DNA of 56,539 bases, counting the filler, from Sluysia triapertura (Eukaryota): the NCBI GenBank assembly GCA_046118255.1. It is 5 parts of 5 records of this genome, joined end to end, with 100 filler letters (N's around TTAATTAATTAA, not from the genome) between each part and the next. Parts side by side here need not be neighbours in the genome. Positions count along the whole stretch, not along the records: positions 22,523 to 34,002 come from JBJNIA010184268.1; 4 more parts are not named here. One strand, given 5' to 3'. Shown one piece after another: positions 2,736-53,778 of the stretch; within the stretch, counting starts at the first letter, position 1, and each line of letters begins with the position of its first letter. The notes beneath the pieces were generated by a model. It was not told the DNA's origin. It did no database searches and was given only the letters and a program-made list of their open reading frames with translations. Made by a program: the position numbers and the translations under genes.

Positions 2736-2989
2736 CTTCTGATTATTTAATGTCAGCAGTTGCTTCTAATAATATTAGATTAAATCGATGATTCATATTT
2801 AACTTACGTCGATAATTATCTAAAGGATAAAGAATTAATGTTTGAGTTTGCCATACAAGGAACGCGTACATGCAAGAGAAAGCATGTAAAATAAAAAGAA
2901 ATAACATATTTTATTGAAAGAAGTATTAATTCACATGATAATTTTAGTTTCTTTAACGTGAAATTAAAATAATCCATGCTCCTGAACAA

Positions 2990-3571
2990 ATGTATTTGCA
3001 CCAAATGTTAATGATCAAAAATTTCGATTATTTACCATCAGTAACGTACAACAATTTCGACATTTCTGTCTACATCATAAAGACATTGGAAAGATGTATC
3101 GAATTTATAGTAAACATCGGTACTGTTAGAACGAACAATTTAGTAAAGCTGTCAACACCATTCACAAGAGTAATGAAATTCCAAACGTATAAAGTTGTTC
3201 GAGCAAATAATGATCATTCTTTTTAATTTAAAACCGCTATTTGCCCTCATATCACAATACTGAATGCGGAATGTTCCAGATATGGTAAACAATGTATGCA
3301 TGCACATAATGTTGTCGAATTAAAAGACAATTTTAGCTTCGACTCAAATTCATTCGGATATCTTAGTAGAATTCATAAACTTATAAGTGAATTGACTTCA
3401 AATCCAATTCATCACAAAAACGATCGTGATATTAAAGTAATTAACGTTTGCTTATTTTATAAAACTATGATTTTCAAATTCCTTTATTTATCTTATTTTA
3501 AATCATATAGGATAGTAAGGTGCATTCGGAAGACAATAATCTTTTTAAATTTAGATCTAAATGTTGTTTAA
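2990..3571 (+). pseudogene. Orphan ORF interrupted by one in-frame stop; paralog of 38739..39275
   Basis: Track ORFs 2990..3226 and 3296..3571 are in one frame, joined by FKTAICPHITILNAECSRYGKQC. This matches YKIGLRLYITTQSGECSKYGKNC of the 178-aa ORF. Confidence 0.65.
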
Positions 3572-11156: not shown

Positions 11157-11256
11157 NNNNNNNNNNNNNNNNNNNNNNNNNNNNNNNNNNNNNNNNNNNN
11201 TTAATTAATTAANNNNNNNNNNNNNNNNNNNNNNNNNNNNNNNNNNNNNNNNNNNN
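11157..11256. other. Artificial contig linker (N44-TTAATTAATTAA-N44)
   Basis: Exactly 100 nt with a six-frame-stop core; identical at four places. Confidence 0.98.
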
Positions 11257-11434
11257 AAGGGAATTTAAGAATCGATGATATTTTGTTGTGCCATGAGTGA
11301 TAATTATTTCGAGAATGAGAACTGCAAACGTGAGTTGGATTATGCATTAAAATACAAACAGAAAGACGATCTTGTAATAGTAAAAGTGAGAAAAATTGTA
11401 ACATAAAAAACAATATGATACTAACATAAGAAAT
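11257..11434 (+). pseudogene. Additional partial TIR repeat with a nonsense codon and a frameshift
   Basis: Reads KGI*ESMIFCCAMSDNYFENENCKRELDYALKYKQKDDLVIVKV, nearly identical to the downstream repeats. Confidence 0.85.
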
Positions 11435-22679: not shown

Positions 22680-22980
22680 TTTTAAAGATTTCATGAACGT
22701 TACAAGATTACTCAAAGTCCTAAAATGTCTATTAAGGTCTCAGAAAAATCTCAAGGAAACTTTAAAGTTTCAAAACGTTTTCTGAACACATCTCAAGCTT
22801 CCTCAATGGTCTTTGGAATTTCAAAGTAATCTTAAATTCTAAAAATGATCATCGATGCTTTCATCTTCATCATTATTTCTCCAGCTATATTTTAATATAC
22901 GTTATTTTGTATTAATTCTTCCTGAATCTCTCAACTCCAAATCTTCTTTACTCATCTCCAATTCATAGCTGAGCGATTCT
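22680..22980 (+). repeat. Dispersed repeat family B copy
   Basis: ttactcaaag..ttaaggtctc..ggtctttggaa..tgagcgattctaatatta matches 8210-8560. Confidence 0.65.
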
Positions 22981-24269
22981 AATATTACTATTATTATATA
23001 TTTTACAATTACTATTATTGTTGTGTTTTTAATTTTTAATATTTTTTAAATTAACAAGGACAATTATAAAAGACAATGAGTCTTAATTTCATTATATTAT
23101 AACCATATCACAATATATCGCAATCAAAATCAAATAGTGATTAAGTAACTATAATTTAGTCTTTTACGACAATTAATTATTTAAGAAAATAAAATATGAT
23201 ATTCAATTTCAGGGGTTACACAGCATTTATAAATGTTAGTAACCAGAATAAAATAAATAAATAATAAAAACTCAAGACTCAACTAACCACAAATAAGTTG
23301 GTGTTTTAATAAAATTTAGTCCGATTTCTAAAGAATTGTAAGATTTAGTTAGTGTTTGTACTACTGCATTGAAGCAGGCTTCTTACAGCAAAAGTTATAA
23401 TAATTTTCTTTTGTTCTGTTTGTGTCAAATGATAGAAAAATATGGTTCGTTATATAGTGGATAATTGATAAGAAGTCGGAAATTCGACTTAATTATTGTG
23501 CATGTCGGTTTTATGTCGACCACTTTTCTTAATCAAATTTGAATATAAATTTCCGTCGAATTTCTGTCTTAATATTATCTAGTTTTGTGGCATAATAAAA
23601 TTAAAATTTAAGATTATAGTTATTTTGTATATATTTTATATATTTTTTAGATAAGTACTAAGATTAGTTTTATAATTATAATTACTATTATTTCTAAGAT
23701 TTTTGTTATTATTTCCAGTTTATTCATTATTTATAATAAGGCTTGTTCTTCAGGAATAACATGTTTTGTTAATATTTTTATAAATTTGATGATTAATTTA
23801 AGTTACAATTATTTTTATAACATACATAAAATCAATATATTATTACTCTTGGTTTAATTTATTCTGCCTCTATAATTTTTATAAAAACTTTAAAAAATGT
23901 CATATATTTCAAAATTATTTAACTTCATATTTAAATTAAATTGTTTTTGAAACGTTGAAGTTGCATCATCATTGAATGATTATTATTATTATTTAGTAAA
24001 TACATATTTTCCGGTTAAATATATTCAACAAACATTTACCATATACCAATTATTTAAATCATTTGATTTTTTTCATTATATGTTATTATTTTATATTAAG
24101 CAAATAAAATATTTCCAAGTTAAAATAAATATGTATAATTTTAAAGGCATTTTAAAGCAGTTATTTCACCTTCGTGTTTTGTTAAACTTAGACATTTTAA
24201 TTATTAAAATTTTTGTAATGTTCAGCAATTTTTTTATCACGCTGAAATTTTATGTTTCATAGTTAAAGA

Positions 24270-24823
24270 ATGGGTATTCCATTGGATAACTTTGTTTCAG
24301 AAGTTGATGAAGAATTGATTTGTGCTATTTGTAAAAATGTTCTTGATAATCCAATTCAAGCTGCGATTTGTGAACACACCTTTTGTCATTTTTGTATTGT
24401 AGAATGGTTGAAATTTGATTCTTCTTGCCCAGTTGATAGAAATATTTTATCCAAATCAGACTTAAAACCTGTACCGAGAATTTTGCGAAATTTATTGAAT
24501 AAGTTAAATGTGTACTGTGATTTTAAAAGCGAAGGTTGCACTGAAATAGTTAAATTAGAATCTCTAGTTAATCATGTTAGAGAATGCGAATATAATCCTA
24601 CGAAACCAATATTTTGTTTTGAAGGCTGTGGAACAATTATTTCAAAAACTAATGAGGTACTTTTTGAATATAACTTATTTATGTTTAGCAAAACCATAGT
24701 TGCATTAAAGCTTTAAGAACAACTATAAAAGAACAAACAAAGACAATAGAATCGCTAGAACAAAAATATACTGATTTAAAATCAAAATATGATACAACTT
24801 TAGAAGAAGTGACTATTTTAAAA
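24270..24823 (+). CDS. RNF41: E3 ubiquitin ligase NRDP1/RNF41, exons 24270-24656 and 24689-24823; later exons not found
   Basis: VDEELICAIC..CEHTFCHFCIVEW....CPVDR..L....LKPVPRILRNLL RING plus TRAF-type zinc finger. Splicing a 32-nt GT-AG intron gives QNHSCIKALR..coiled coil..ILK followed by a GTATG donor, as in RNF41. Confidence 0.92.
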
Positions 24824-25635
24824 GTATGCTTTTTTTATAAATTCGAAAATTGAAGCTAACATAAATGTAAATTTGAAATTGATAATTTAAATTTATCAAT
24901 TTTTTGTTGGAGTGACTTTTCTTTAATGAGTTGTACAGTTTTAAAATATGAAATATTTAAAAAAACATAAGTTTAGATTTCTCAACATATTTTAAAGTAA
25001 GTAGTGATTTAAATGTAAATTCAATTTAATTTATACTTAAAATCTCAAAAACTGATTTCAAATAAGTAGTGTGGTTTTTGTTGAAAATTAGTTATTGAGA
25101 ATAGTAAAAGATTTACATTAAATTAATTTAAAATTTACTTGAAAATATGCTGTACCTCAAAAGTTCATTCAAGCGTTCTGGTGGCTGAGATTTGTTAATC
25201 CATGTACCAAATCGAAATAATAGGTAATAATATAAACAGTTGGATTATATTATTTTTGATTTTTAAAGCTTTATCTTATTTAAAATGTGGGTTCTTCAAG
25301 AACTATTTTAATTAATTTTATTAATTGCTTTTTTTATAAATTTGTTAAAATATCAAAATAACCTAATGTCATTTATATTATGACAGTTTTTTTGGTTCGA
25401 GTGGTTTGATAAAGAAAGTATCGATTACGATTTGTATAAATTGTACAACTTAAATTTAGGAATAATCGTGGAAATATAGGCCTTTAAGTAAAGTTTATAA
25501 TCAATTCAGTATTTGATGTTAAATAAAATTGATAAAAATATTGAAAAATGAAATCAGTGGTTTTTATATAGGTAGAAGCTAATTTAAAAATATTGCACAC
25601 TAATTAATCCTATTGATCAAGCATTAATAATTCTA

Positions 25636-26101
25636 TTGGGTTGGTGCATAAATTTATTCGGTTTTATGTGTTACAAAGAAAACACACCAACTTATTGTTT
25701 TAACTGATTTGAGTTATATTCAACTATTTAAATCATTTTAGACTAACTTTCACTTTCATAACCCTCATTAAAATGGAATGTGAGGTAGATAAAAATGAAT
25801 ATTTCCAGCATCTACTCCTTGCCTACAGATTTTCATCTTTTCCGCTCCATCTTTTTGGTCTCACATTTGAAAGCGAAGAAGCAATAACCAAAAATCACCA
25901 AGCTTCTTCAAACGTGGGATTGACAAACTGCCATAATGGTGGAATGAAGTGATCGATTGTGATGTATAACATTTCATCGATTGAGACTGAGATATTTTGT
26001 TATTTGGTATGTTTTTTTGCATGGTTTTGCATGGTTTTGCATGGTTTTGCATGAATTTTTCATAATTGTAAAAAACCGCACGAACTTATGCACTAATCCT
26101 A
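25636..26101 (+). mobile_element. Internally deleted mariner with both terminal inverted repeats and TA flanks
   Basis: TA|TTGGGTTGGTGCATAA...TTATGCACTAATCCTA|TA; keeps the N-terminal MECEVDKNEYFQHLLL and C-terminal GIDKLP*WWNEVIDCD. Confidence 0.88.
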
Positions 26102-26745
26102 TATAATGGATAAAGGTTCTGCCCATGTTTTGGTATATACTGCTTGAATATATCCAAATGTCAAACTACAAAACTATTATTATTAAGGCTGGGACTTTGA
26201 AGGATTTTACTGCACTACTGAATGATTTAATAATAATGTATTGAGTTAAATATAATATAATAAAAACAAGAATGAAATTACAACATAATGTTATAAATTT
26301 CGATGGCTTTTTAATAAAATAAAGGTGGAACCAGATGTATATTATATTATATAATGAAACACCTACGAACAACTATTATTCCAAAATGAGACATGTTTTG
26401 TATTTTAAAACATTGACTTCCCAATTAGAAATTTATTGTGAATATTCTACAATTTTATTCAAAAAGAAGGATAATGAAAATTTATGATTTTTACGACCAT
26501 TATGATGTCATTTATTTATCGATCATGTTCATAAATCAAAAATCGGTGCAGGAAATTTTTCCGGTGAACCGGGAACATCCATAATTATTATTATTACTAA
26601 TATTACTATTATTTATACTGCTACTAGTAATACTATTACTAATACTACTATTATTATTAGTTTTATTGCTGTTTCTGCTTCTTTTATTAATATTGCTATT
26701 ATTAATATTAAATATAATTATAATTTTGAAGAATAAATATTTATA

Positions 26746-28530
26746 TTAAATGTCTCTTTTACCTTGAGCAGTTATAATATCCCAATATAAATTATTTTTA
26801 AATATTGCTATCATATTAAATGGCAAAGAATTATTTTTCGAAATAATTTTCCAGTTTAATTTATCTTTAAATTCTTGCATAAAGCATTCACTAAAATTGA
26901 TCTTCTTAGAAACGTATTTCCAGTTTACCTTATCGGGAAATTTTCTAATCAAATCTTCATTTAATATTTGATATTTTGAAACTAAATCCCAGTTTAATTT
27001 ATTGTGATATTGTATTATGCATTCTTCATTTAATACTTGATATTTGGATATTAAATCCCAGTTTAATTTATTTTCATATTTTATTATTTGTTCATCATTT
27101 AATATTTGATATTTTGAAACTAAATCCCAATTCAAATAATGGCTGTATTTGGTTAATAAATCTCTAGATAAAATATGTGCTTTAACTAATTCATCCCAAT
27201 CGATATTATGCTGAAATTCATGGACAAATTCTGTGGAAGTATGATAGAAATTTTGCGATATATATTTCCAGTGAAGTTTATATTGATATTTTCTAATGAA
27301 ATTTCTGCATAAAAGTCGTTTACTAATTAATTTCCAATTTAATTTATCACTAAATTCGCTTAATAATGTTTTACTTAATGCTTGTGAATTACTTATGCAT
27401 TTCCAATCAACTTTATTTTGAAATTCGCGAATGAAATCTTCTGTTAATTGTTGTTTGCAAACTAATGACCAATTGATTTTATTTTGATATTGACGAATAA
27501 AGGACAATGATAAATGATAGCCAATCAAATTCCAGTTGATATAGTGACGATAATATTCGATTTGTTTTTCATTTAATTTTATATTACGGTTTATTTTGTG
27601 CCAGTTTTGTTGAATTTCGATTGTATCACTTAACGGTATTACTGATCCAGTGTAATTTAACCATTGTTGTGCATTACAATTCGGTAAATTATATATGAAA
27701 TTCCAATTGAATTTCCGTCGAAATCGTTTAATAAATCGTTTACTTAACACTTGATACATACTTAAATAATGCCAGTTCAGTTTATGTTTAAATTTTGACA
27801 TAAAACGCGTACTTAAACGTTGAGTTCGACTAATTATATCGAAATTTATTTTATCGGCAAATAGTATCATGAAATCTTCTGTTAATGTTTGGTGTAAACA
27901 AACATTTTCCCAATCTAATTTCTCATGAAATATAGTCATCAATTTCGTTGTTAAACGCTGATATTTACAAATAGTCGACCAATTGAATCGATCGTGGTGC
28001 TTGTATAATAAACTTGTCGGTAAAATCTTATTTTCACTTAAAATATTCCAATTGATTTTGTGTGAATATTGCAAAATGAATGTGGTATTTATATTATCCC
28101 AACGACTTACTAAATTCCAATTGAAATCGTTTTGAAAACTTTTAATGATTTTATAAATGGGTTTCATATGAGTATTAGATAAAAACGACCATAATTCTTC
28201 GTTATTACTTAACTTATCCCAATTTAAATTGCTTCTATTTCGTTTAATGAATTTCAATGATAAATTGGTAATATTTGATATAAATTGCCAATTTGTTTCT
28301 TGTACTTCTACTAGGTCTACTTTCATTATTGTACGGCAATAAGCACATTGGGGTTTTTTCTTCGATTCAATCCATTTATCGGCACATTTTTGGCAATAAT
28401 AATGACCACAACTGCTAACAGTGTCCACAAATGACAAGTGTATACAACATTCATCTGGTTTATCGGTTTTATTCAATTGTATTCGTGGTTTAATAACTGT
28501 ATATGTACAGACTTTATCTAAATAATTCAT
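26746..28530 (-). CDS. RING-finger plus tryptophan-repeat (~22-aa LNW..IS.YQ.L.E.FI) protein, intronless
   Basis: Intact 594-aa ORF. N-terminal CCIH...SCGHYYCQKC..KW......CAYCR, then roughly 20 repeats with (L/I/V)(N/D)W. Confidence 0.9.
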   Translation of the reverse strand: MNYLDKVCTYTVIKPRIQLNKTDKPDECCIHLSFVDTVSSCGHYYCQKCADKWIESKKKPQCAYCRTIMKVDLVEVQETNWQFISNITNLSLKFIKRNRSNLNWDKLSNNEELWSFLSNTHMKPIYKIIKSFQNDFNWNLVSRWDNINTTFILQYSHKINWNILSENKILPTSLLYKHHDRFNWSTICKYQRLTTKLMTIFHEKLDWENVCLHQTLTEDFMILFADKINFDIISRTQRLSTRFMSKFKHKLNWHYLSMYQVLSKRFIKRFRRKFNWNFIYNLPNCNAQQWLNYTGSVIPLSDTIEIQQNWHKINRNIKLNEKQIEYYRHYINWNLIGYHLSLSFIRQYQNKINWSLVCKQQLTEDFIREFQNKVDWKCISNSQALSKTLLSEFSDKLNWKLISKRLLCRNFIRKYQYKLHWKYISQNFYHTSTEFVHEFQHNIDWDELVKAHILSRDLLTKYSHYLNWDLVSKYQILNDEQIIKYENKLNWDLISKYQVLNEECIIQYHNKLNWDLVSKYQILNEDLIRKFPDKVNWKYVSKKINFSECFMQEFKDKLNWKIISKNNSLPFNMIAIFKNNLYWDIITAQGKRDI

Positions 28531-28697
28531 ACTGAAAGTTATTTAAACAATTATGAAAAGTTATTAAAATCATTTATTGTAACTTAAATATTATTAATTT
28601 TCATGTCAATCCCTTCATTTATTAATTTAATTACACTTCATCGAAATTGTAATACTAATACAATTAATCTTTTCCTTATTTTGTGTAATAGCATTTA

Positions 28698-28723
28698 ACA
28701 ACAACAACAACAACAACAACAAC

Positions 28724-28754
<31 letters not shown>
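28698..28754. repeat. (AAC)n(AAT)n microsatellite
   Basis: Direct reading. Confidence 0.95.
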
Positions 28755-28756
<2 letters not shown>

Positions 28757-31699
28757 GTCTGAACAATATGAATACTATCTACGTAGTTTTATCACTTATC
28801 CCATCAGTATTTTATTAGATATATTGTTTCTTAAAATTTAAACAAACAACAAAAACTAAGCATCTAAAGATTTATGTAAAGGTTATAAAAATTGTCAGTG
28901 GACATATTTAACTTAAGAGATGTATTATTATTGGACTTGCAGAAAAATCAAATGTACATAAAAAGATGTGTAGATTTTTTTACAAACAAGTATATCTTTT
29001 TAATGTTCAATTGTATAGCTTCAGATTGACACTTTAACAGTACATTTCCTTACCTAAATTCAGGTAAATCAATACTTGGCCCTAAAAGAGACGAAATAAT
29101 GACATAAAAAATATATTGATTATTTGCTTAAGCAATTTATTGAAATATATTGGATTGTATTTATTTGATTTTTATCAGTGTGGCTTAGAATAAGTTTAAC
29201 CTAAAAGCAACTACGAAGAAGTCCACTGAATCTATAGCAATTTATTCGTGCTTTTAACATAAACAACAGTTTATTTAATCTTCATTTGACAAGCTTATTT
29301 ATTATGAATTAATGTATCAACATTTTCGAATAGTAAGAAATTTGTTGTTTTTAATTAAATTAAACAATGATTAAATATATCGTAATAACATTTTCTTACA
29401 GCTTCATTTTACGTGAATTAAATAATAAGGATTAGTTTAATTCAATGATTATTTTAACAATTAATATTTTAATTTCGTATTATTTTCTATTTTTATATTA
29501 TTGCGGCTAAATTTCATAATTAAATAGCACATCTTTTAAGATGTAAATTATTTTATGATTAATAATAGTTCATTTAAGAATGCCTGAAACTTCTTCGTCT
29601 TAATATTTTCCAAGTAATCAAAATACCAATCATTTTTATTCAAATTATTATTTACTTTAACTTTACATGTAATTATTTTTTGACCATAATTTAGCTCTAG
29701 TGGAGCTATCAAAATACAATAAAGTACAATAAAATAAAATACAAAAATCAAACTAGTGATAATAGGAAGATAATAAAACAATAATAGTAATTTCGATAAA
29801 TTTTAGTTTCTGTTTTTGTATTATGATTATTGTTCACTGTAGTTGTGAAGATTGTTCTGTTTTATTTATGCTATTTGTTGGTTTGATATTTTGTGAGATT
29901 GTGTTGAAGTTTGTTTAAGATTTTGTTTATGAGAAATGCGTTGGTTTATGTTGATGTTTGTCTATGATTAAGTTTTAATTAGACGCTCACCACAATGTGA
30001 ATATACTATTTATTTGGTAGTTAGATAATAGCACGTTTATATTTATTTCTCTAGGTTTAGTTTATGGAGTCAAAGGTTGGCTCCAAAGAAATATTTAGAT
30101 TTTCTAATTAATTAAAATAATCATACCAAAAAATATTTATTTAATTTTAATAAATATTAAAAATTAACTTTCGATTTTACAATTTTATTTTGAGAAAATT
30201 ATCAATATTAATATTAAGATTTTTTAATGAAACTAATTTAAATTTTATATATATACATTGAATATTTATGGCAATATCCAAGCATGCCTGAGTTATGTGC
30301 ATGGATTATTAAAATAACAAATTTTTTTCAATTTTTGTCGGAATATAAAATTAAATTAGTATCGAAAAAGTTGGAAGTGATAAAAGATGTCTTCAAAAAG
30401 TAAGAATTAAGTTTAAAGTTAGTGAAAGTTGTAATATTTCAGTTATAGAAAACAGTAATACTAATTACAGTAGACAGTAAAGGGATCAGTAGAAAATGGT
30501 CCATCATCTCAAGAATATAACTTCAAAAATATTGTAATTCGCTAATAAATATAGTAATTATACTACGAATGAGTAGTTTAATCTTATTTTCTGATGTTTT
30601 CCAGATGGAAAATATTGGCTAGGATATTTAAAAGAATTAGAAAAGTAGAAGCAATCTCGAAAACTGAAGGTCTATCATTTTGGACACACTTTGATGTGAT
30701 AACAACAGTTACTCAAAATGTATTGAAATGAGATAAATTTTTGTGATAAAACCTTGACCTGTGGCAAGACAACTACTGATCATGAATTAAAGCTAATTTG
30801 ATATTAAACATAGTTGCTTCTGGAAATCTCACTAAACGTATTTAGCCACCCAAATAAGCGTATCTCAGACTTATTGAGAATATATATAGTCAATTATTAA
30901 AATACATGTTCTTTGGATAATTTTCTGAAACACCTTAATCGAAAATTACGTAATTTTGAATCAGTAGGATTCTTTACATGTTTTTGTTTTCCTCTTATGA
31001 TATTAATTTAATAGAAACTGAAAGTAATATATATTTTTCAGTAGGATTATAATGAATAATTTTCTTTACTGAATAATACGTAAAACTAAAATTCAATCTA
31101 ATATTTGAATTAATGACACATTGAGTTTTTCTGTGTTGAGCTTCATTAACTTTCTATACTTATGGATGTTTTGATGATTCATTAAAGGACAAATGTTAAT
31201 CATGTTTAGAACAAGAAATTAAATTATGTGATAAATGGTTTTATTTAGGGAAAAATTTCCAGATCAATTGTGCCAGTAGATCCTTTAAAACGCGATTTTC
31301 AGGAATTCGAAGAGAAAGGGTTGATTGTTGAAAACAATGTTTTCATACGCGATAACAAACAAATTCAAAAATACCATAGTAATTCGAAAGTAAGATTATC
31401 AGAATCACATGATATGTTCGAGATCATCGTATAACATTATTATGTCATAAATATATTATTTATACAATGTCCTAAGAAAAATGATATAACTGCATATATG
31501 AATATCTGAGTAAAGGCATGTCTGACAAGCGAATTAAAAAGACCAATAAATGATATATGCTGTCTGTTTTGTAAATTCTTTAATCGATTTTACAATATTC
31601 TATGCACACTGGCTTTATGTTCGTTTTTCCCGTAAGCCTAGATAAATTTCAGCAGACAGTCAATTCGTGACTAAGGAATATTAATCCATGTTTATAAAA

Positions 31700-31980
31700 T
31701 AAACAAAAGAGGTTCCTTTTGTCGTGTATGAAAATGAAAATAGACACATCTTAAGCAAATTTCAGAATAATAGATTTACATTATCTATTAAGCGATCAAT
31801 TTCAAGATTTTAGTATTTTTGGTAGATCGTTTGAAAAAGATGTTACTTCATTTCTAGATATGAAAACTAATGATGTAGTAGAAAAGAAACTTTCGTCTCG
31901 TCTGGAACTGGGACGAATATTTATGAGATATCATGTAAGTTCGAAATTTTACGAAATAACTCAGGTTAGACCGTCAAGAG
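31700..31980 (+). pseudogene. Possible Penelope-like reverse transcriptase fragment
   Basis: FEKDVTSFLDMK followed by RKET..GTG.NI resembles the E...LPFLD..YRKPT.TG region; heavily decayed. Confidence 0.3.
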
Positions 31981-32178
31981 GTTAAATTTTTAAAGCCATA
32001 CATTAATTACAACAGGGTATATACATTGTCGAATATTTAATTTTATATATATTTAATGTTAGGTTGATTATTGCTGTAAAGTTTCATATTTTAATTGTTA
32101 AATTCAGGATATCGTTAGAAATATAACGTCAAATTTGTACCTTTCTTCTGATATATTCAATGAAGAAGAAATGTTTCG

Positions 32179-32179
<1 letters not shown>

Positions 32180-32244
<65 letters not shown>
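32180..32244. repeat. (TTA)n microsatellite
   Basis: Direct reading. Confidence 0.95.
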
Positions 32245-32655
32245 GTGGGTGATTTTTTATTTCTAACGTGTTCTAAAGTAGCCACATTGTTGATGTTCGG
32301 GTTTAAACTTCCAATATAAAATAAGTATCAGATAAATATATTAATACAAAATATACTAATTCAGTCAGGACAATGGTAAAATGAATGCTTTATATGTTCT
32401 TCACAATTAGTTTCTTGATGGACACATTTTTACATCCCATACTTTTTTTGATACTGAATAATACATTGATCTTATTAACTATTTAACGGCACAAAACATA
32501 AGCATTGTATATTGATAGATCAATTATATTTGAAAAAAGAATTTATCTAAATTATTTGGTGCTTCTTTTGTATCATAATATAAAATTATTTCGCCATGTA
32601 AGATGTGATAGTTGCATTGCTCGCGTATTGAGATACTAATTTTATAGTTTTTTTT

Positions 32656-33660
32656 ATATAATTTAATCCTCTTGTCAAATAATTTAGGCTTTTTGTCATA
32701 TAACTTAATCTTTTTTGAAATTAATTAATTAATTGTAATTGTAATGCTTGTATATTATTCAATAAAATAAAAAACTCCAAAATAAGCGAACATTCACACT
32801 TCTTAATAAATTTACAATAAAAGGGCTAATTGTCAATTGCTCTGATTGCCAAACTTGATGGTATTATTTTCAATTTCAATTTGCAGATTTTATGATATTT
32901 TCCCTTTTCGAATACTTTTTCAATTGGATTAAGTTGTGCAGAATACGGTGGATTAAATTTTCATAATTATTAATGACACATCAGGGTTATTGAAATAGCT
33001 GTTGTTTATAATTTAAATATAATTTAATCGTTTAATAAATACGAGAAGAAAGTATATTGCATGGACTTTATTTAAAATTCAATATAGACACCATCATTCG
33101 CCACGAGTTTCTCAAGTCGACCAGGAATCACATCAATTGATTTCATAAGAAACTCTTGTGAGATGAATACCATAACTTCATGTTTTCTCCCTTCAAGTTC
33201 TTCCAAATTTCTTGGTTTGGTTGAGTAGACTTGCTCTCTCAACCAAACCCAGAGAAAAAAGTCAGGACTTCTGACCCATCCATCTTTCAGGAAATTTATC
33301 ATTCAGCCGCTCACGAACAATGACAGCAAAGTGCGGAGGAGCTTAATGGTTATTCACCATCTTTGCACTTGAACAATTGATTTCCAAACTTCGTAACGTG
33401 CAGCTATCTGGGTGTAAGACGATCAATCATTTTTGTAGGATTTTGAGATTTCAAACAAATTCATAAAACAGATCTAAAAAGAAAACGAGAGCGTAGATGA
33501 AATTGTCATACATTAAGTTGAGAAATATATTACGGCATTTGAATTATATTGTAGGTATTTTAAAATAGGGAGATGTGATTTATGTATAGGTGCATTATTC
33601 ATAATGATGATTGTATTTGTTATAATGCTTAAATTATTTGACAAGAGAATTAAATTGTAT
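32656..33660 (-). mobile_element. Internally deleted Tc1/mariner-superfamily element flanked by 34-nt inverted repeats
   Basis: APPHFAVIVRERLNDKFPERWMG and RSPDFFLW.WLREQVYSTKPRNLEELE (33072-33345). Inverted repeats at 32656-32689 and 33627-33660 have 3 mismatches. Confidence 0.8.
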
Positions 33661-33925
33661 GAAAAACGTTAATTCATGCTTGTTTTCCTGATTATCACAT
33701 GACCTTTTATTCTTTTCGAAAGAAAAGACAATATGAATTTTCAAAATCACAGAAAATTATATTATATTATATCAGTGATTCTCTGGATGTAGCAATCAAG
33801 TTAATTTTAATAAATCATTCAATGACCATATCTTTCGTAAATTAGTAAAATTAATATTTTATATGTAGTGTGTACTAGAAGAAGTTAGGAAGTAATTTGA
33901 ATGATATGTGGATCATTATGCAAGT

Positions 33926-33926
<1 letters not shown>

Positions 33927-33984
<58 letters not shown>

Positions 33985-34002
33985 TGATGATGATGATGAT
34001 GA
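33927..34002. repeat. (AAT)n(GAT)n microsatellite
   Basis: Direct reading; at contig end. Confidence 0.95.
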
Positions 34003-34102
34003 NNNNNNNNNNNNNNNNNNNNNNNNNNNNNNNNNNNNNNNNNNNNTTAATTAATTAANNNNNNNNNNNNNNNNNNNNNNNNNNNNNNNNNNNNNNNNNN
34101 NN
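34003..34102. other. Artificial contig linker
   Basis: Same pattern; the preceding contig ends in (AAT)n/(GAT)n. Confidence 0.98.
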
Positions 34103-37846: not shown

Positions 37847-38497
37847 CTAAATAAAAATCAAAAAAATAATTAAATCACAAGAATCATAAAATTCAATTAC
37901 TTTAGATTTGTCCATGCTGTTAATCATTAAAATACTTGTTGTGCTTACATACTTTCTCCGTTGCGAATTAACTTGTAAACAGTCGACACGAATTCTGATG
38001 TTGTCTTCAAGGTTCAGTGAGTATCGGTATTGTAGAGCCGCTTGGTTTACGTTTACGCAGAGGTTCATAAGACCATTTGTTATTATATGTTGACGTTCGT
38101 TACTTGACTTTTATATAGTGTGCTTATATCTGTTATCATTAAAGTTTTAGTCGAATAATAGTCTAATATATACATAAACTAATATATACACATCTAAAAA
38201 ATTCTTGTAAACTCTTAAAACGTTCTTCAAACACAAAAACAACCATTTTTTGAGTTGAAGAGTTTGATGGTAGTATGAGCACTCATCCTTGTACAAATAA
38301 GAAACAGGTTCAGGAACATTACAAACTTTGTCATCACCATTTGGAACATAGTCAATCGTTGTACAATCCATCGAGCTGTCACAAATTATAAATCTGTTTT
38401 TTACTGTTGATGCTAATAGTGTACTGTTGATTCTACTGCCGCTGCGTGAATTGAAAAATATTATGAAAATTGTATTTCCTTGAAAGTTTTTTAACAA
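37847..38497 (-). pseudogene. Orphan ORF fragments in a co-oriented array
   Basis: ORFs 38147..38497 and 37847..38068, coding-like composition. Confidence 0.35.
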
Positions 38498-38738
38498 AAA
38501 TTAATTTAAAATTTTCAAAATTTAGTAAGAAATGGAAATAAAATACTAAAACTATCTATTTTTATAACATTGAGATAAAAAATAATTTTTTTTCTACATT
38601 GTTTCCGTAATTTCTGAATGTGTTCATACATTTGGCTAAAAATATACAAATATAAAAATTGACTTAAATCAAAATAAATCGTAACAAAATGTAAAATTAT
38701 CCATGGGTCATCCTGTATCACTGAATCTGATCGGACAC

Positions 38739-39275
38739 TCATAGAATTAAACTTGCTGATGTTGGCAGTACTAATTTCCAGTCCCGCGTGTTAAATATAA
38801 CTCCAAAGGTTGCTAAGAGAGAATTTATTCTACCATAATGAGTACTGAAAATTGTTGGATAACTAATGACATCATGGCATTTATAAACTGTTTGGCAATA
38901 TCTGCAATTCTTGCCATATTTTGAACATTCTCCAGATTGAGTAGTTATATATAGACGAAGGCCTATCTTGTAATTTTTATCGTCATTGATGTTCTGTGCA
39001 TTATGATCTAAAGGTTTGTTACCATTGTAGAAAAGTTTAAAACGGTCGATTTTTGATGTTTCATTCGACAATTCTGTCCTTACTGTTAGTACTTTATTCG
39101 TAACGAAAACTTTATCAAAATCTACCATATTTGTAATAACTAATTTGTGAAACATTGGAATTATATTGATATGAGTCTCCATAACCTGAACATCAACTGT
39201 TACAATTAATCTATCTATACTTTTAACAAAAAATAAATCTGATAACATGACTTTTCTGTGATTTTTACAAATCAT
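38739..39275 (-). CDS. Orphan Cys-motif protein (ECSKYGKNC), paralog of 2990..3571
   Basis: 178-aa ORF with an internal paralog in this window; acceptor tactcacctcAG just upstream of the ATG. Confidence 0.7.
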   Translation of the reverse strand: MICKNHRKVMLSDLFFVKSIDRLIVTVDVQVMETHINIIPMFHKLVITNMVDFDKVFVTNKVLTVRTELSNETSKIDRFKLFYNGNKPLDHNAQNINDDKNYKIGLRLYITTQSGECSKYGKNCRYCQTVYKCHDVISYPTIFSTHYGRINSLLATFGVIFNTRDWKLVLPTSASLIL

Positions 39276-39346
39276 AGGAAACTCTTTCGACTGAGGTGAG
39301 TAAAATTGTATAGTTAATCTTCTTGTACTAATATTTTGTACTTGTG

Positions 39347-39577
39347 CTAATGTAACATACCATCTAAAACTAATTTTTCATTTATAGTTAAGTCTGACCT
39401 AGGGATTTTTATATTTACTAGATTATTATTCTGGTCTTTAACATATTGCAATATATTACATCTATCTACAAATCTACTATCTTTTATTTGCTTTACGTTA
39501 GCAACACACTCGGTTCTTAAATTATCTTTTTCGTTAAAGCCGAGTACTATATTTCTATCAACAAGTTTAACTAACAT
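39347..39577 (-). CDS. Hypothetical protein
   Basis: 76-aa ATG ORF with globular composition at the head of the array. Confidence 0.45.
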   Translation of the reverse strand: MLVKLVDRNIVLGFNEKDNLRTECVANVKQIKDSRFVDRCNILQYVKDQNNNLVNIKIPRSDLTINEKLVLDGMLH

Positions 39578-40259
39578 ATAAAATGGGACACATGATATTT
39601 TATCTATAAATATCGAAATTTGTTTTTAAACACAGTATTTATAATTTGCCTTTTATCTTTATTTATCACCTTGAAGTTGTATTTGTCTCTTTACAACAAT
39701 GCTTATCTTTTTGTCACTTTTTTAAAATTATGCTGAAAATAATAATTTTTATTTCTAACACTTTTGTGATTTGTACTCAGTAACTATCATTGGTTGTTCA
39801 ATCAGAACGAGAGACAATAATGGAAATAGTAATAATATATTTCGACTAAGTGACTATCAATATAAAAATAGAATTGATTGGACTTCCAGTATTTAGAGTG
39901 ATAATGTACATGTTAATGATGACGATAATAATAGAAATAAGATTGATTGAACGTCAAATCAAACAAAAATAATTGTGAGACAATTAGTACTAATCAATAG
40001 TACTATTAATAGTACTAATCAAAAAGAATTACAAAGCTGTCAAGGATGACAGTATAGATAGTGGTAGTAACCACACAAACAACAATTTTTATTAAAAGTA
40101 TTGATAATTATAGTAGTTATATAAATAAACTAAATAATGATTATAATAAGGTAAAATATAAAAATAAAAACACATCTTTTCTCTTTCTGTAAATATAATC
40201 TGTCTTTCAATGACTTCCTCTTCTTAACATATTATTTATTTTGCTTACTAGTATAAATG

Positions 40260-45668: not shown

Positions 45669-45768
45669 NNNNNNNNNNNNNNNNNNNNNNNNNNNNNNNN
45701 NNNNNNNNNNNNTTAATTAATTAANNNNNNNNNNNNNNNNNNNNNNNNNNNNNNNNNNNNNNNNNNNN
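45669..45768. other. Artificial contig linker
   Basis: Same pattern; the preceding contig ends in (TTA)n. Confidence 0.98.
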
Positions 45769-50747: not shown

Positions 50748-51239
50748 ATATTTTATTTTCAATATATGTTTAACTCAAAATATCAATTTACTCTTTTGGA
50801 TTTTACTATAACCAATTTTACTTTATTAAACTTTATTTGAAACTCTACCGAATTTTACTTAAATCAGTTAATTCTATTAATTAATGACACTATTAATTTA
50901 TCTATACTAAAATCAAAGATAACAAAATTTATTATTCGAAAAAAAACAAATTTATAAATATATGTTTGGTGGGTGATCTAGATAATTGAAATGAGTTGAA
51001 TTTAAATTTATAAAATTATCATTTAGCAGGTGCAGATTTATCTGTACATGCCTCATTGAACCTATTCTTATTTCGTAAAAAGTTCTTTTATAATTAGAGA
51101 TAATTCTTATGAAATCTTTTCTCATATTATTAACACCATGTTCACTATAAGTGAAACATTTATGAATGCCACAAAACTTGACTTTAAATAAATTATATAA
51201 AAGACTAAACAACACATAAGTATATTCAAACTTTTATTA

Positions 51240-52550
51240 AATATAGAGACAAAGACTATTATATTTGATAGTGCATCCTGATGTGCCGCATTCCGCCGCG
51301 CTCCAATAGGATCATCTGAAAAAAAATGAATATTTAATTTAAAAAATGATTTAATAAAACAAAAATTAACCTTTTTAACTTCTCATTTATGAACCTTGAA
51401 TTTAATATGTTTATCCAATAGATAATTATCGTACGACTTTGGAGATTGTAGAGGTGAACACATAACTTTAAGACTAGATTTATTTTTTCTTTTGATATCA
51501 ATTATTTTTTCAGATAATTCTGAGCATACGGATGATCAAATTGTAAGAAGATTCCAAGATCTTTGAATATGAAAGTCTTTTTATATATTTCATTTTATGC
51601 AGACTTTTGAATAACTCCTTATATTCTTGAAAAGAGAAAATATGCGCAATTACTGGAGTTTCATATGTTGCATGTAAAACTCCATCTAATGAATTTACTT
51701 TAACATAATCTAAATATTGTAAATTTAAAAATTCGTTACCGAGACATGCATTTTCACTACTACAACAATTATTATCATTTTTAAATAGGTTGGCAATCTT
51801 CAACTTTATTTTTGCTGTCTGAACTATTTCTGTACCAACTAAGTTAGTTGGAAAGCGACGATTATAAAATGATTATAATTCACGATTATAAAATGATTTG
51901 AAAACATCAGTACATGGTGGTAAAACTAACTGAACAAATGAAAGACATTGTTCATTATACATAATTGAAATACATTTACTAAATCTTTCAGTCAGAATAT
52001 GCATTAATTTACTAATGTAACTAAATGGATACTATTTCCATTTCGCAATACTAGATCGATTACAGTAACTAGACTTCACGTGAAATTGACATAAAGAAAC
52101 AGGATCCATTGTGTTTATAAAACTGTTTCATTCTAAATTTTGGATCACCGCTGAAGGGAATCTACAATCAATAATTATACTAGAATTTAGTTTTAAATTT
52201 TTTAAGTCATCTAAATCAGAAATAGGAGACAGCATCAACATAGACTCATAATTATCACATAAATCAACTTATTTATTATTAGAATACATAAACGAATATA
52301 CGCCAAAATTTGATATTAAATTAGAATTAATACAATTATAAACTTCATAATCTTCTTGATAACTGAGCATGAAAAATAGTGCTTTATAATTGTTATTAGT
52401 AATAACTAAAAATAAATTGTATTTAATTTTACCAACATAAGAATATTGATTGGTATTCAGAATGAATTGAACCGCGTTTTCGATTTTATTTGCTTGTGAG
52501 CATCTGCATTAGCGACTCTTTCTCGTATACAGTTTGATCTCATATTAAAG
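51240..52550 (-). pseudogene. Decayed Cys-rich orphan gene, possible short intron ~51316-51370
   Basis: Long frame with few stops (..CRFPFSGDPKFRMKQFINTMDPVSLCQFHVKSSYCN..; CCSSENACLG); GTTAATT..TTTTTTTCAG intron-like segment. Confidence 0.45.
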
Positions 52551-53469
52551 ACTATACGTTCAGATAAGTCTAATAACTATGTATAATTTGAAATTTTTCC
52601 AACTATTGTTACAGGCATAACAGCGAGAGAAAATTGTAAATTATATTTATTGACTTGTCAAGTACAAAAAATGATATTTTTAATTCCTTTTTTTCAGATG
52701 ATGGCCAGTGATTGGTAATCCAACCAGAATTGTTTATCTGTAGATGAATGAAATTAATTCTCGTTGGATGCCAGTAATATGAGTAGAGATTTAATGAAAT
52801 GGTTATTGTGAATAATTAGCCATCATCAGTGTTGATATAAATGTGTCGACAGTAATGAACAATGTCAACATTGGTGATGGTAGAAACAATTTTTGTTATT
52901 TTATGGAAAATTAATAAAATTTTATAACAATAATAATAAAAACAATGTTGTTATTATTATTAATATTATTTTTCTACGAAAATATTAAAAATTGCATAAA
53001 TTTCCTATCTTTTTCTTAACGCAATCTTTCTGTCGCTTTCATTGAATTCTTAACATATTTTAGATCTGAAAATAGTAGAAATGGATTCTGTAACAACGGA
53101 GACAAAAGAAATAGTGTTAAAATTATTATGGTTATTAATCTACATAAATTGCTGAATTCTTTAAAACTGTACACGATCTTCCTTTAATTCTTCTAGATTT
53201 ATTGACATGTTTTGAAACTAATAATCATTGAGTACAGATTAGTTTGAATGAATTTATATGTGTGATTAACGTTTTAAGATATGATAATATTTCTTATGAA
53301 ATGCAATTAAATGCGGAACACTGGAATGATATTTTAGGTATTGACTTATGTTTCTGATTAAGAATGTATTTAAATATTGGAAGATCGTGAATAAAAGACC
53401 TATTGAGAAGAGTGTAATTTGGTAAACGTAAAAAAGGCAACTACAATACAGCTCTTGGTATATTTAAAA

Positions 53470-53778
53470 TATTGTTGTGCAGTGTTTTCTGTGATTTATT
53501 TATTTGATGTTTTTGAATGGTATTGTATTGTGTTGTTGGTGATTATGTATAGACAAATGGTGAATTTAAGATGTTGTAATTGATTCGAAATAGATAATTT
53601 ACATGATTTAGATAAATTGTTGGTATAAGTTGATGGTATTAAATGTAACTGTGGTTTATATATTATGAGCTTGTGAATATGGCTTAGTTTAGGCAAATGA
53701 ACTATTTTGCAAGTGTATTGGAGGTTTAATTAGTTTTTTCTTTTAAAATTTCAACAGTTATAAAGGTTGCCCACTACA
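53470..53778 (-). mobile_element. LTR-like family A copy
   Basis: Minus strand starts TGTAGTGGGCAACCT; G/T-rich body. Confidence 0.5.

Follow-up and report, generated by a model that had tools for sequence, protein, structure and literature searches.

A tryptophan-repeat ORF with an N-terminal variant RING domain in animal DNA of Sluysia triapertura

The tryptophan repeat gene family is defined by tandem repeats of ~23 aa with a conserved Trp, and its thousands of members are spread across giant viruses and jumbo phages. Some MSV members are said, in work by Afonso et al. from 1999, to carry a C-terminal RING. AMV254 is described as a Trp-repeat protein with an F-box in the accessible text of PMC7728225. 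From what is accessible of that paper and of PMC3185573, AMV254, the poxvirus ankyrin/F-box (PRANC) proteins and the p28 RING ligase all join a binding module to a ubiquitin-ligase module. The function of a phage G Trp-repeat member is given as unknown in the accessible part of PMC12484599. Likewise from partial texts, an iridovirus isolate carries a Trp-repeat gene (PMC6669658), and two endogenous viral elements of ants match one (Flynn and Moreau 2019, PMC6540820). In the literature searched, mostly outside subscription journals, we found no function for the Trp repeat and no description of a RING/Trp-repeat fusion.

We analysed a window of 56,539 nucleotides (filler included) from the Sluysia triapertura assembly GCA_046118255.1. 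It holds an ORF, P0001 (26746..28530, minus strand), that encodes a RING and 22 tryptophan repeats. The entomopoxvirus family (MSV205, MSV027, MSV029, AMV029 and the Mythimna separata EV members) and PHROG 3532, known from jumbo phages (among them phage G gp558-563), have the same repeat by profile (PHROG 3532, E 3e-110). Entomopoxvirus and phage G members also share the predicted fold of P0001 (E 1e-29 to 1e-10, among the best 50 of 61 matches), and P0001 is similar in length to the long family members (530–620 aa). Unlike these entomopoxvirus and phage members, P0001 is found in animal DNA, next to a host gene that is spliced, and starts with a RING whose second ligand is His. As in AMV254, the PRANC proteins and p28, a putative binding module is joined to a predicted ubiquitin-ligase module; compared to F-box and PRANC proteins, however, P0001 has its predicted ligase module, a RING, within the one polypeptide and would require no cullin. 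Sequence shows that the repeat is not ankyrin, and in structure it resembles ankyrins only weakly (Z <= 6.2). The ant elements represent the same viral family inside animal genomes but are described, in the accessible text of PMC6540820, as fragments, whereas P0001 is full length. There are precedents both for this type of fusion and for insertion into animal DNA; what is distinctive about P0001 is its full length, its host-like depth and its possible host splice sites.

The ORF and its tryptophan repeats

The 594 codons of P0001 are free of stops, in agreement with the intact ORF of the sequence-only reading. At the stop frequency of the window (0.081 per codon), the chance of such an open frame is ~1e-22, and P0001 is the longest among the 7 ATG ORFs of >=100 aa in the window. 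Its 22 Trp-anchored units fall into two blocks (9 + 13). Block 1 (27679..28296, minus strand; residues ~79–284) has nine units; Phe replaces Trp in one of them, and another is irregular, with a length of 34 aa. Block 2 (26749..27609, minus strand; residues ~308–594) has 13 units and is preceded by a low-confidence linker. The modal spacing is 23 aa, and the DNA unit is therefore 69 nt rather than 66 nt. Accordingly, the repeats reported previously are present, but the estimate of ~20 units of ~22 aa is corrected to 22 units of 23 aa. No further Trp-repeat copies were found elsewhere in the window.

The profile of PHROG 3532 matched P0001 with an E of 3.3e-110, and two further PHROGs also matched strongly. 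At E<=0.001, 5306 cluster representatives match the repeat. A word search with the repeat protein returned 52 proteins, with identities of 23–52% among the matches listed. Seven phage records match, one of them annotated 'tryptophan repeat gene family protein'. The family definition could be re-derived from homologues, and a profile built from 171 of the 194 scored the ORF at E 3e-75 and 9e-66. In an alignment of 36 sequences, the Trp columns alone are nearly invariant; the homologues are 25–38% identical and the repeat register is ambiguous. An AlphaFold2 model built on this alignment predicts two short helices per unit in both repeat blocks, with pLDDT mostly 80–98 and lower values in the linker and the last unit, so that the solenoid architecture proposed earlier is reproduced in the model. 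Among predicted viral structures (BFVD), 61 fold matches were obtained at E<=0.001. The best 50 of these include 11 proteins of entomopoxviruses and 20 without a name, next to proteins of phage G and of pitho-, marseille-, orpheo- and mimi-like viruses; the best named match has an E of 1.4e-29, a TM of 0.56 and 33% identity. Foldseek gave no match at E<=0.001 among solved structures, and the best VIA-align hit to solved structures (Z 6.2) was to generic helical repeats, with no family indicated. Because the profile matches and the predicted viral fold matches concur, we conclude firmly that P0001 is a member of the viral tryptophan repeat gene family; the viral-family origin previously assigned to the repeats is upheld by PHROG 3532, the phage records, the 5306 cluster representatives and the entomopoxvirus folds.

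The array had also been described as recently expanding, with near-identical 66-nt units at ~26900–27140. The three units concerned (26929..27135, minus strand) measure 69 nt, are 78–81% identical in DNA and share 54–56 of 69 nt and 14–17 of 23 aa; TRF reports a period of 69, 3.0 copies and 81% matches. They are the youngest duplication of the array, yet not a fresh one. Where these units have the same residue, 34 of 44 codons are identical, compared to 29 expected from codon bias alone, whereas 45 older unit pairs have identical codons at 144 of 229 (youngest versus older, Fisher p 0.08). Since the three C-terminal units are only 78–81% identical, recent or ongoing expansion is unsupported and we rejected it.

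The variant RING domain

The RING occupies residues 28–66 (28333..28449, minus strand) and follows the pattern C28-x2-H31-x9-C41-x-H43-x2-C46-x2-C49-x3-W53-x8-C62-x2-C65-R66. C28 and H31 bear out the C-x2-H first ligand pair noted before. Seven of the eight ligands are those of the canonical C3HC4 set and the second is His, which makes the domain a variant RING-HC; its first loop is minimal, at nine residues. The E2-binding Trp (W53) and the linchpin Arg (R66), whose roles in RINGs are covered in the accessible text of PMC6118397 and PMC9954413, are both in place and are invariant with 17 other RINGs. At the level of residues, the domain thus looks like that of an E3, as the sequence-only reading had supposed. 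The RING model has pLDDT < 50 over residues 1–86, with few RINGs in the alignment used. A search with the RING region alone yielded three candidates, none of them scored, which is weak evidence.

The reading that we favor, with reasonable though not high confidence, is that P0001 came from a large eukaryotic DNA virus, is integrated, and encodes a product predicted to act as a one-chain ubiquitin ligase. The RING/Trp-repeat fusion would have arisen in the virus, presumably to remove a host protein. The N-terminal RING would bind two zinc ions, with His31 standing for Cys, and could dock a ubiquitin-loaded E2 via Ile30 and Trp53 and activate it via Arg66. The predicted helix pairs of the repeats would stack into two solenoid blocks, whose variable positions may bind the substrate in the way of poxvirus ankyrin/F-box proteins and p28 (PMC3185573, in its accessible part). 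A full-length member with its own RING offers a biochemical handle on the family, through a ligase assay, a substrate pull-down and a helical-repeat structure that is as yet unsolved.

The same domain might instead belong to an integrated viral relic whose RING is inactive as a ligase, with the frame intact because the insertion is young or because the product serves as a non-catalytic binder. We judge this unlikely. It would fit the second ligand, which is non-canonical and whose codon would need two changes to encode Cys, the Ala that replaces the usual Pro ahead of the last Cys pair, and the sub-threshold Pfam scores (zf-RING_2, E 1.1e-4 and 22.9 bits against a cut-off of 27.3; zf-C3HC4, 20.9 bits against a gathering score of 21). 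A broken RING-H2 gene elsewhere in the window points the same way, as does the CpG observed/expected ratio of the ORF (1.37, versus 0.80–0.92 in the background), which indicates that the host pattern has not been fully adopted. However, the seven other ligands, Ile30, Trp53 and Arg66 are all retained, and Cys-to-His swaps are found in whole RING families, at the eighth ligand (PMC6118397, accessible text). Moreover, 1.8 kb have stayed stop-free, and GC (26%) and GC3 (24%) of the ORF agree with host values.

Genomic setting of the ORF

The window consists of five pieces of 10.8–11.6 kb joined by identical 100-nt spacers (11157-11256, 22423-22522, 34003-34102 and 45669-45768), each made of 44 N, a 12-nt six-frame stop and 44 N. 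The true context of the ORF is therefore the piece 22523-34002 (JBJNIA010184268.1) alone. A landscape of decayed ORFs had been noted around P0001; clusters of broken ORFs do exist, but mostly beyond the artificial spacers, on other pieces. The ORF's own piece carries RNF41 exons, high-copy repeats, microsatellites and a transposase remnant. The latter (32826-33668, minus strand) matches DDE_3 below the cut-off (E 0.0023), and we take its other motifs to be of Tc1/mariner type. The animal RNF41/NRDP1-like gene (24270..24823, plus strand) has exons at 24270-24656 and 24689-24823, separated by a 32-nt GT-AG intron, and shows 48–58% identity to 49 matches, of which the named ones are all animal. 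Exons for the C-terminal half of RNF41 were not found in the rest of the window. Either the gene is truncated, or it has an intron longer than 9 kb, within which the ORF would lie; with the C-terminal exons missing from the window, nesting of P0001 in an RNF41 intron is possible. High-copy repeats (25528..26745) lie between RNF41 and the 3' end of the ORF, with a summed contig depth of 14,000–50,000 compared to 13–22 for unique DNA.

One public sequencing run, probably the assembly's own source, contains the stretch; no RNA run is listed. Exact-match contigs over the ORF have depths of 13.1, 12 and 20.9, the RNF41 contig has 15.8, and three other flanking contigs have 13.9–21.8. One ORF contig continues 234 nt past the stop into DNA whose summed depth is close to 50,000; a second extends 159 nt beyond the 5' end of the ORF, to a microsatellite. 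Since depth is equal and the contig ends run into repeat DNA, integration is favored, and the ORF is likely integrated in a chromosome of an AT-rich animal. Pfam scans of two selections of ORFs (48 and 10) revealed no viral hallmark gene, and no terminal repeats were seen among those listed for 17500-40000.

A different origin for the same assembly would be that the ORF comes from a virus or another co-sequenced organism and that the assembler joined host DNA to it at the flanking repeats. Run contigs do break at repeats on both flanks (25703-26512 and 28690-28762), none of those listed from the one run bridges the ORF to RNF41, and the ORF is present in that run only. Against this, the ORF has the depth of host unique contigs, its contigs run into high-copy DNA on one side and to a microsatellite on the other, and from a gene-dense virus one would expect neighboring genes, of which none were seen. 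We regard such a join as improbable. The earlier concern about a chimeric join to the RNF41 contig is met in part, in that there is no sign of a chimera while the join itself lacks a bridging contig.

With P0001 taken as an integrated viral gene, we considered whether the host splices it. P0001 had been called intronless, and its frame is open without any internal intron; however, sites resembling an acceptor and a donor lie at its two ends, which puts the claim in doubt. A candidate acceptor (28532..28537, minus strand) ends 1 nt before the ATG and would close a candidate 522-nt intron (28532..29053, minus strand) that contains an AAC/AAT microsatellite at 28697-28755. Upstream is a candidate mini-exon of 28 nt (29054..29081, minus strand) with a pyrimidine-rich acceptor and a donor of the strongest type; two of its frames are open and one fits the phase of the ORF. 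The mini-exon and the ORF are on different run contigs. At the other end, the GT of a donor-like site (26757..26764, minus strand) starts 17 nt from the end of the ORF, with no exon identified downstream of it. The mini-exon donor word occurs twice in the window, compared to 3.2 expected, and is not enriched overall. A donor-like word near the ORF end is seen in 2 of 105 ORFs, P0001 included. The acceptor and mini-exon features occur jointly at 0.1–4.8% of 1832 ATGs, depending on stringency, where the joint criteria were set after the site was seen and the count at the strictest level rests largely on the site itself. As a lead only, these signals suggest that the P0001 gene may be host-spliced and that 'intronless' may be wrong.

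That the animal now expresses the gene, as opposed to carrying a young insertion that has yet to decay, is possible but doubtful in our estimate. A fully domesticated viral ligase, with P0001 as a long exon behind one or more host mini-exons, under selection, part of a small gene family and representing a solenoid E3 class otherwise absent from animals, seems to us rather unlikely. If the splice signals are real, P0001 would exemplify the adoption of a viral ubiquitin ligase by an animal; if they are not, it would be one more endogenous large-virus gene and a record of a virus infecting this animal group.

Two run contigs bear on gene number in the sample. One, at a depth of 15.8 and placed at 27403-27456, matches one repeat unit and then goes back 36 with 33 letters between, giving a 69-nt period whose joint is in frame by eye. 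The second, of 1763 nt and depth 13.4, matches 27403-27456 with 9 differences in 54 nt. The 69-nt-period joint and the 1763-nt contig point to at least one further, diverged Trp-repeat gene at single-copy-like depth.

RING fusions in the family and other ORFs of the window

The novelty that had been implied for the RING/Trp-repeat fusion does not hold, because a RING pattern is already present in 3 of 194 homologues, all three confirmed by Pfam among the 62 scanned. The metagenomic protein P0088 and its cluster mate P0196 (locus L010) align with P0001 through RING, linker and repeats, in the same order, with a linker of almost equal length (14 versus 16 residues to the first Trp). Unlike P0001, they have Cys, the canonical residue, at ligand 2, and their repeats are far less numerous (262–265 aa in total length, versus 594). 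They also differ in setting: P0196 sits among giant-virus-type genes, directly after a 934-aa protein with AEP_C962R, PriCT-2 and D5_N domains, that is, a giant-virus-type C962R/D5 primase-helicase, whereas P0001 is in animal DNA. Two further metagenomic proteins, P0083 and P0175, have the same repeat with the RING at the C-terminus, in contrast to the N-terminal RING of P0001.

Shared ancestry of the P0001 and P0088 fusions looked convincing in BLAST but failed its controls. Against P0088 and P0196, the P0001 RING scores 15.0–15.8 bits; RNF41 RINGs give values of up to 16.3, and P0083 gives 18.0. The N-extension plus linker of P0001 versus P0088 is not above shuffles (328–1605 of 2000 reach the score). 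Common descent of the fusions is not shown, since the RING is as close to generic RNF41 RINGs. No close relatives of P0001, of P0088 or of the L010 helicase were found in viral contigs. A search with P0175 gave nine loci, and the three examined (L001, L007 and L008) all appear phage-like by eye. In the Atlas, there were only leads at 0.75, with one cluster in which 10–16% of members have a RING.

We hold it very improbable that the fusion arose in the animal lineage from an RNF141-like host RING and an array taken from a virus or phage: among solved structures, animal RNF141 matches the RING best by a clear margin (26.2 bits, E 2.4e-5; next protein 15.7 bits), the RING is not measurably closer to viral RING fusions and a Listeria phage matches the repeats at E 9e-63, but an identical domain layout is already present next to a gene of giant-virus type, the RNF141 match spans 48 residues only while the remainder of P0001 is viral repeat, RING and repeats share one uninterrupted frame, and viruses themselves are generally known to capture host RINGs.

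The majority of the homologues lack a RING, and those whose genomic context was seen here are from phages, so the repeat as such is not tied to ubiquitin. The proteins P0183, P0044 and P0005 have the repeat fused to Skp1-like (E 0.006), protein kinase and other N-terminal domains. An F-box had appeared by eye in several homologue N-termini and was rejected: among 18 rescanned homologues, Skp1_POZ (E 0.006) and F-box-like (E 0.12) were weak matches in one each. On metagenomic and viral contigs, Trp-repeat genes form tandem arrays of three (L011:304-3095, L007:3956-6799 and L008:3959-5815).

Elsewhere in the window, an orphan gene family is found on three pieces (2957-3568, plus strand; 38742-39377 and 52272-53729, minus strand), most copies being stop-broken. 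Its members share a weak CCCH-like motif and pairwise z values of 9.8, 5.2 and 4.9 among 153 pairs; there were only weak matches in Pfam and NCBIfam, nothing in the Atlas for the ORF at 38742, and no viral match. Same-strand clusters of short broken orphan ORFs lie at 37847-39625 and 50952-53729 (both minus strand). Because four of the five pieces carry clusters of broken orphan ORFs, the window suggests a genome strewn with some element. In the segment 18270-22159 (minus strand), GC is higher (32%) and short ORFs on the same strand follow one another in a virus-like layout; among them are the broken RING-H2 gene (19668-20000) and an orphan of 228 aa (18495-19181). Finally, a tandem TIR-only gene (11257-12925, plus strand) begins at the edge of its own piece; its 462-nt unit is present in 3.5 copies, with a single frame running from 11402.
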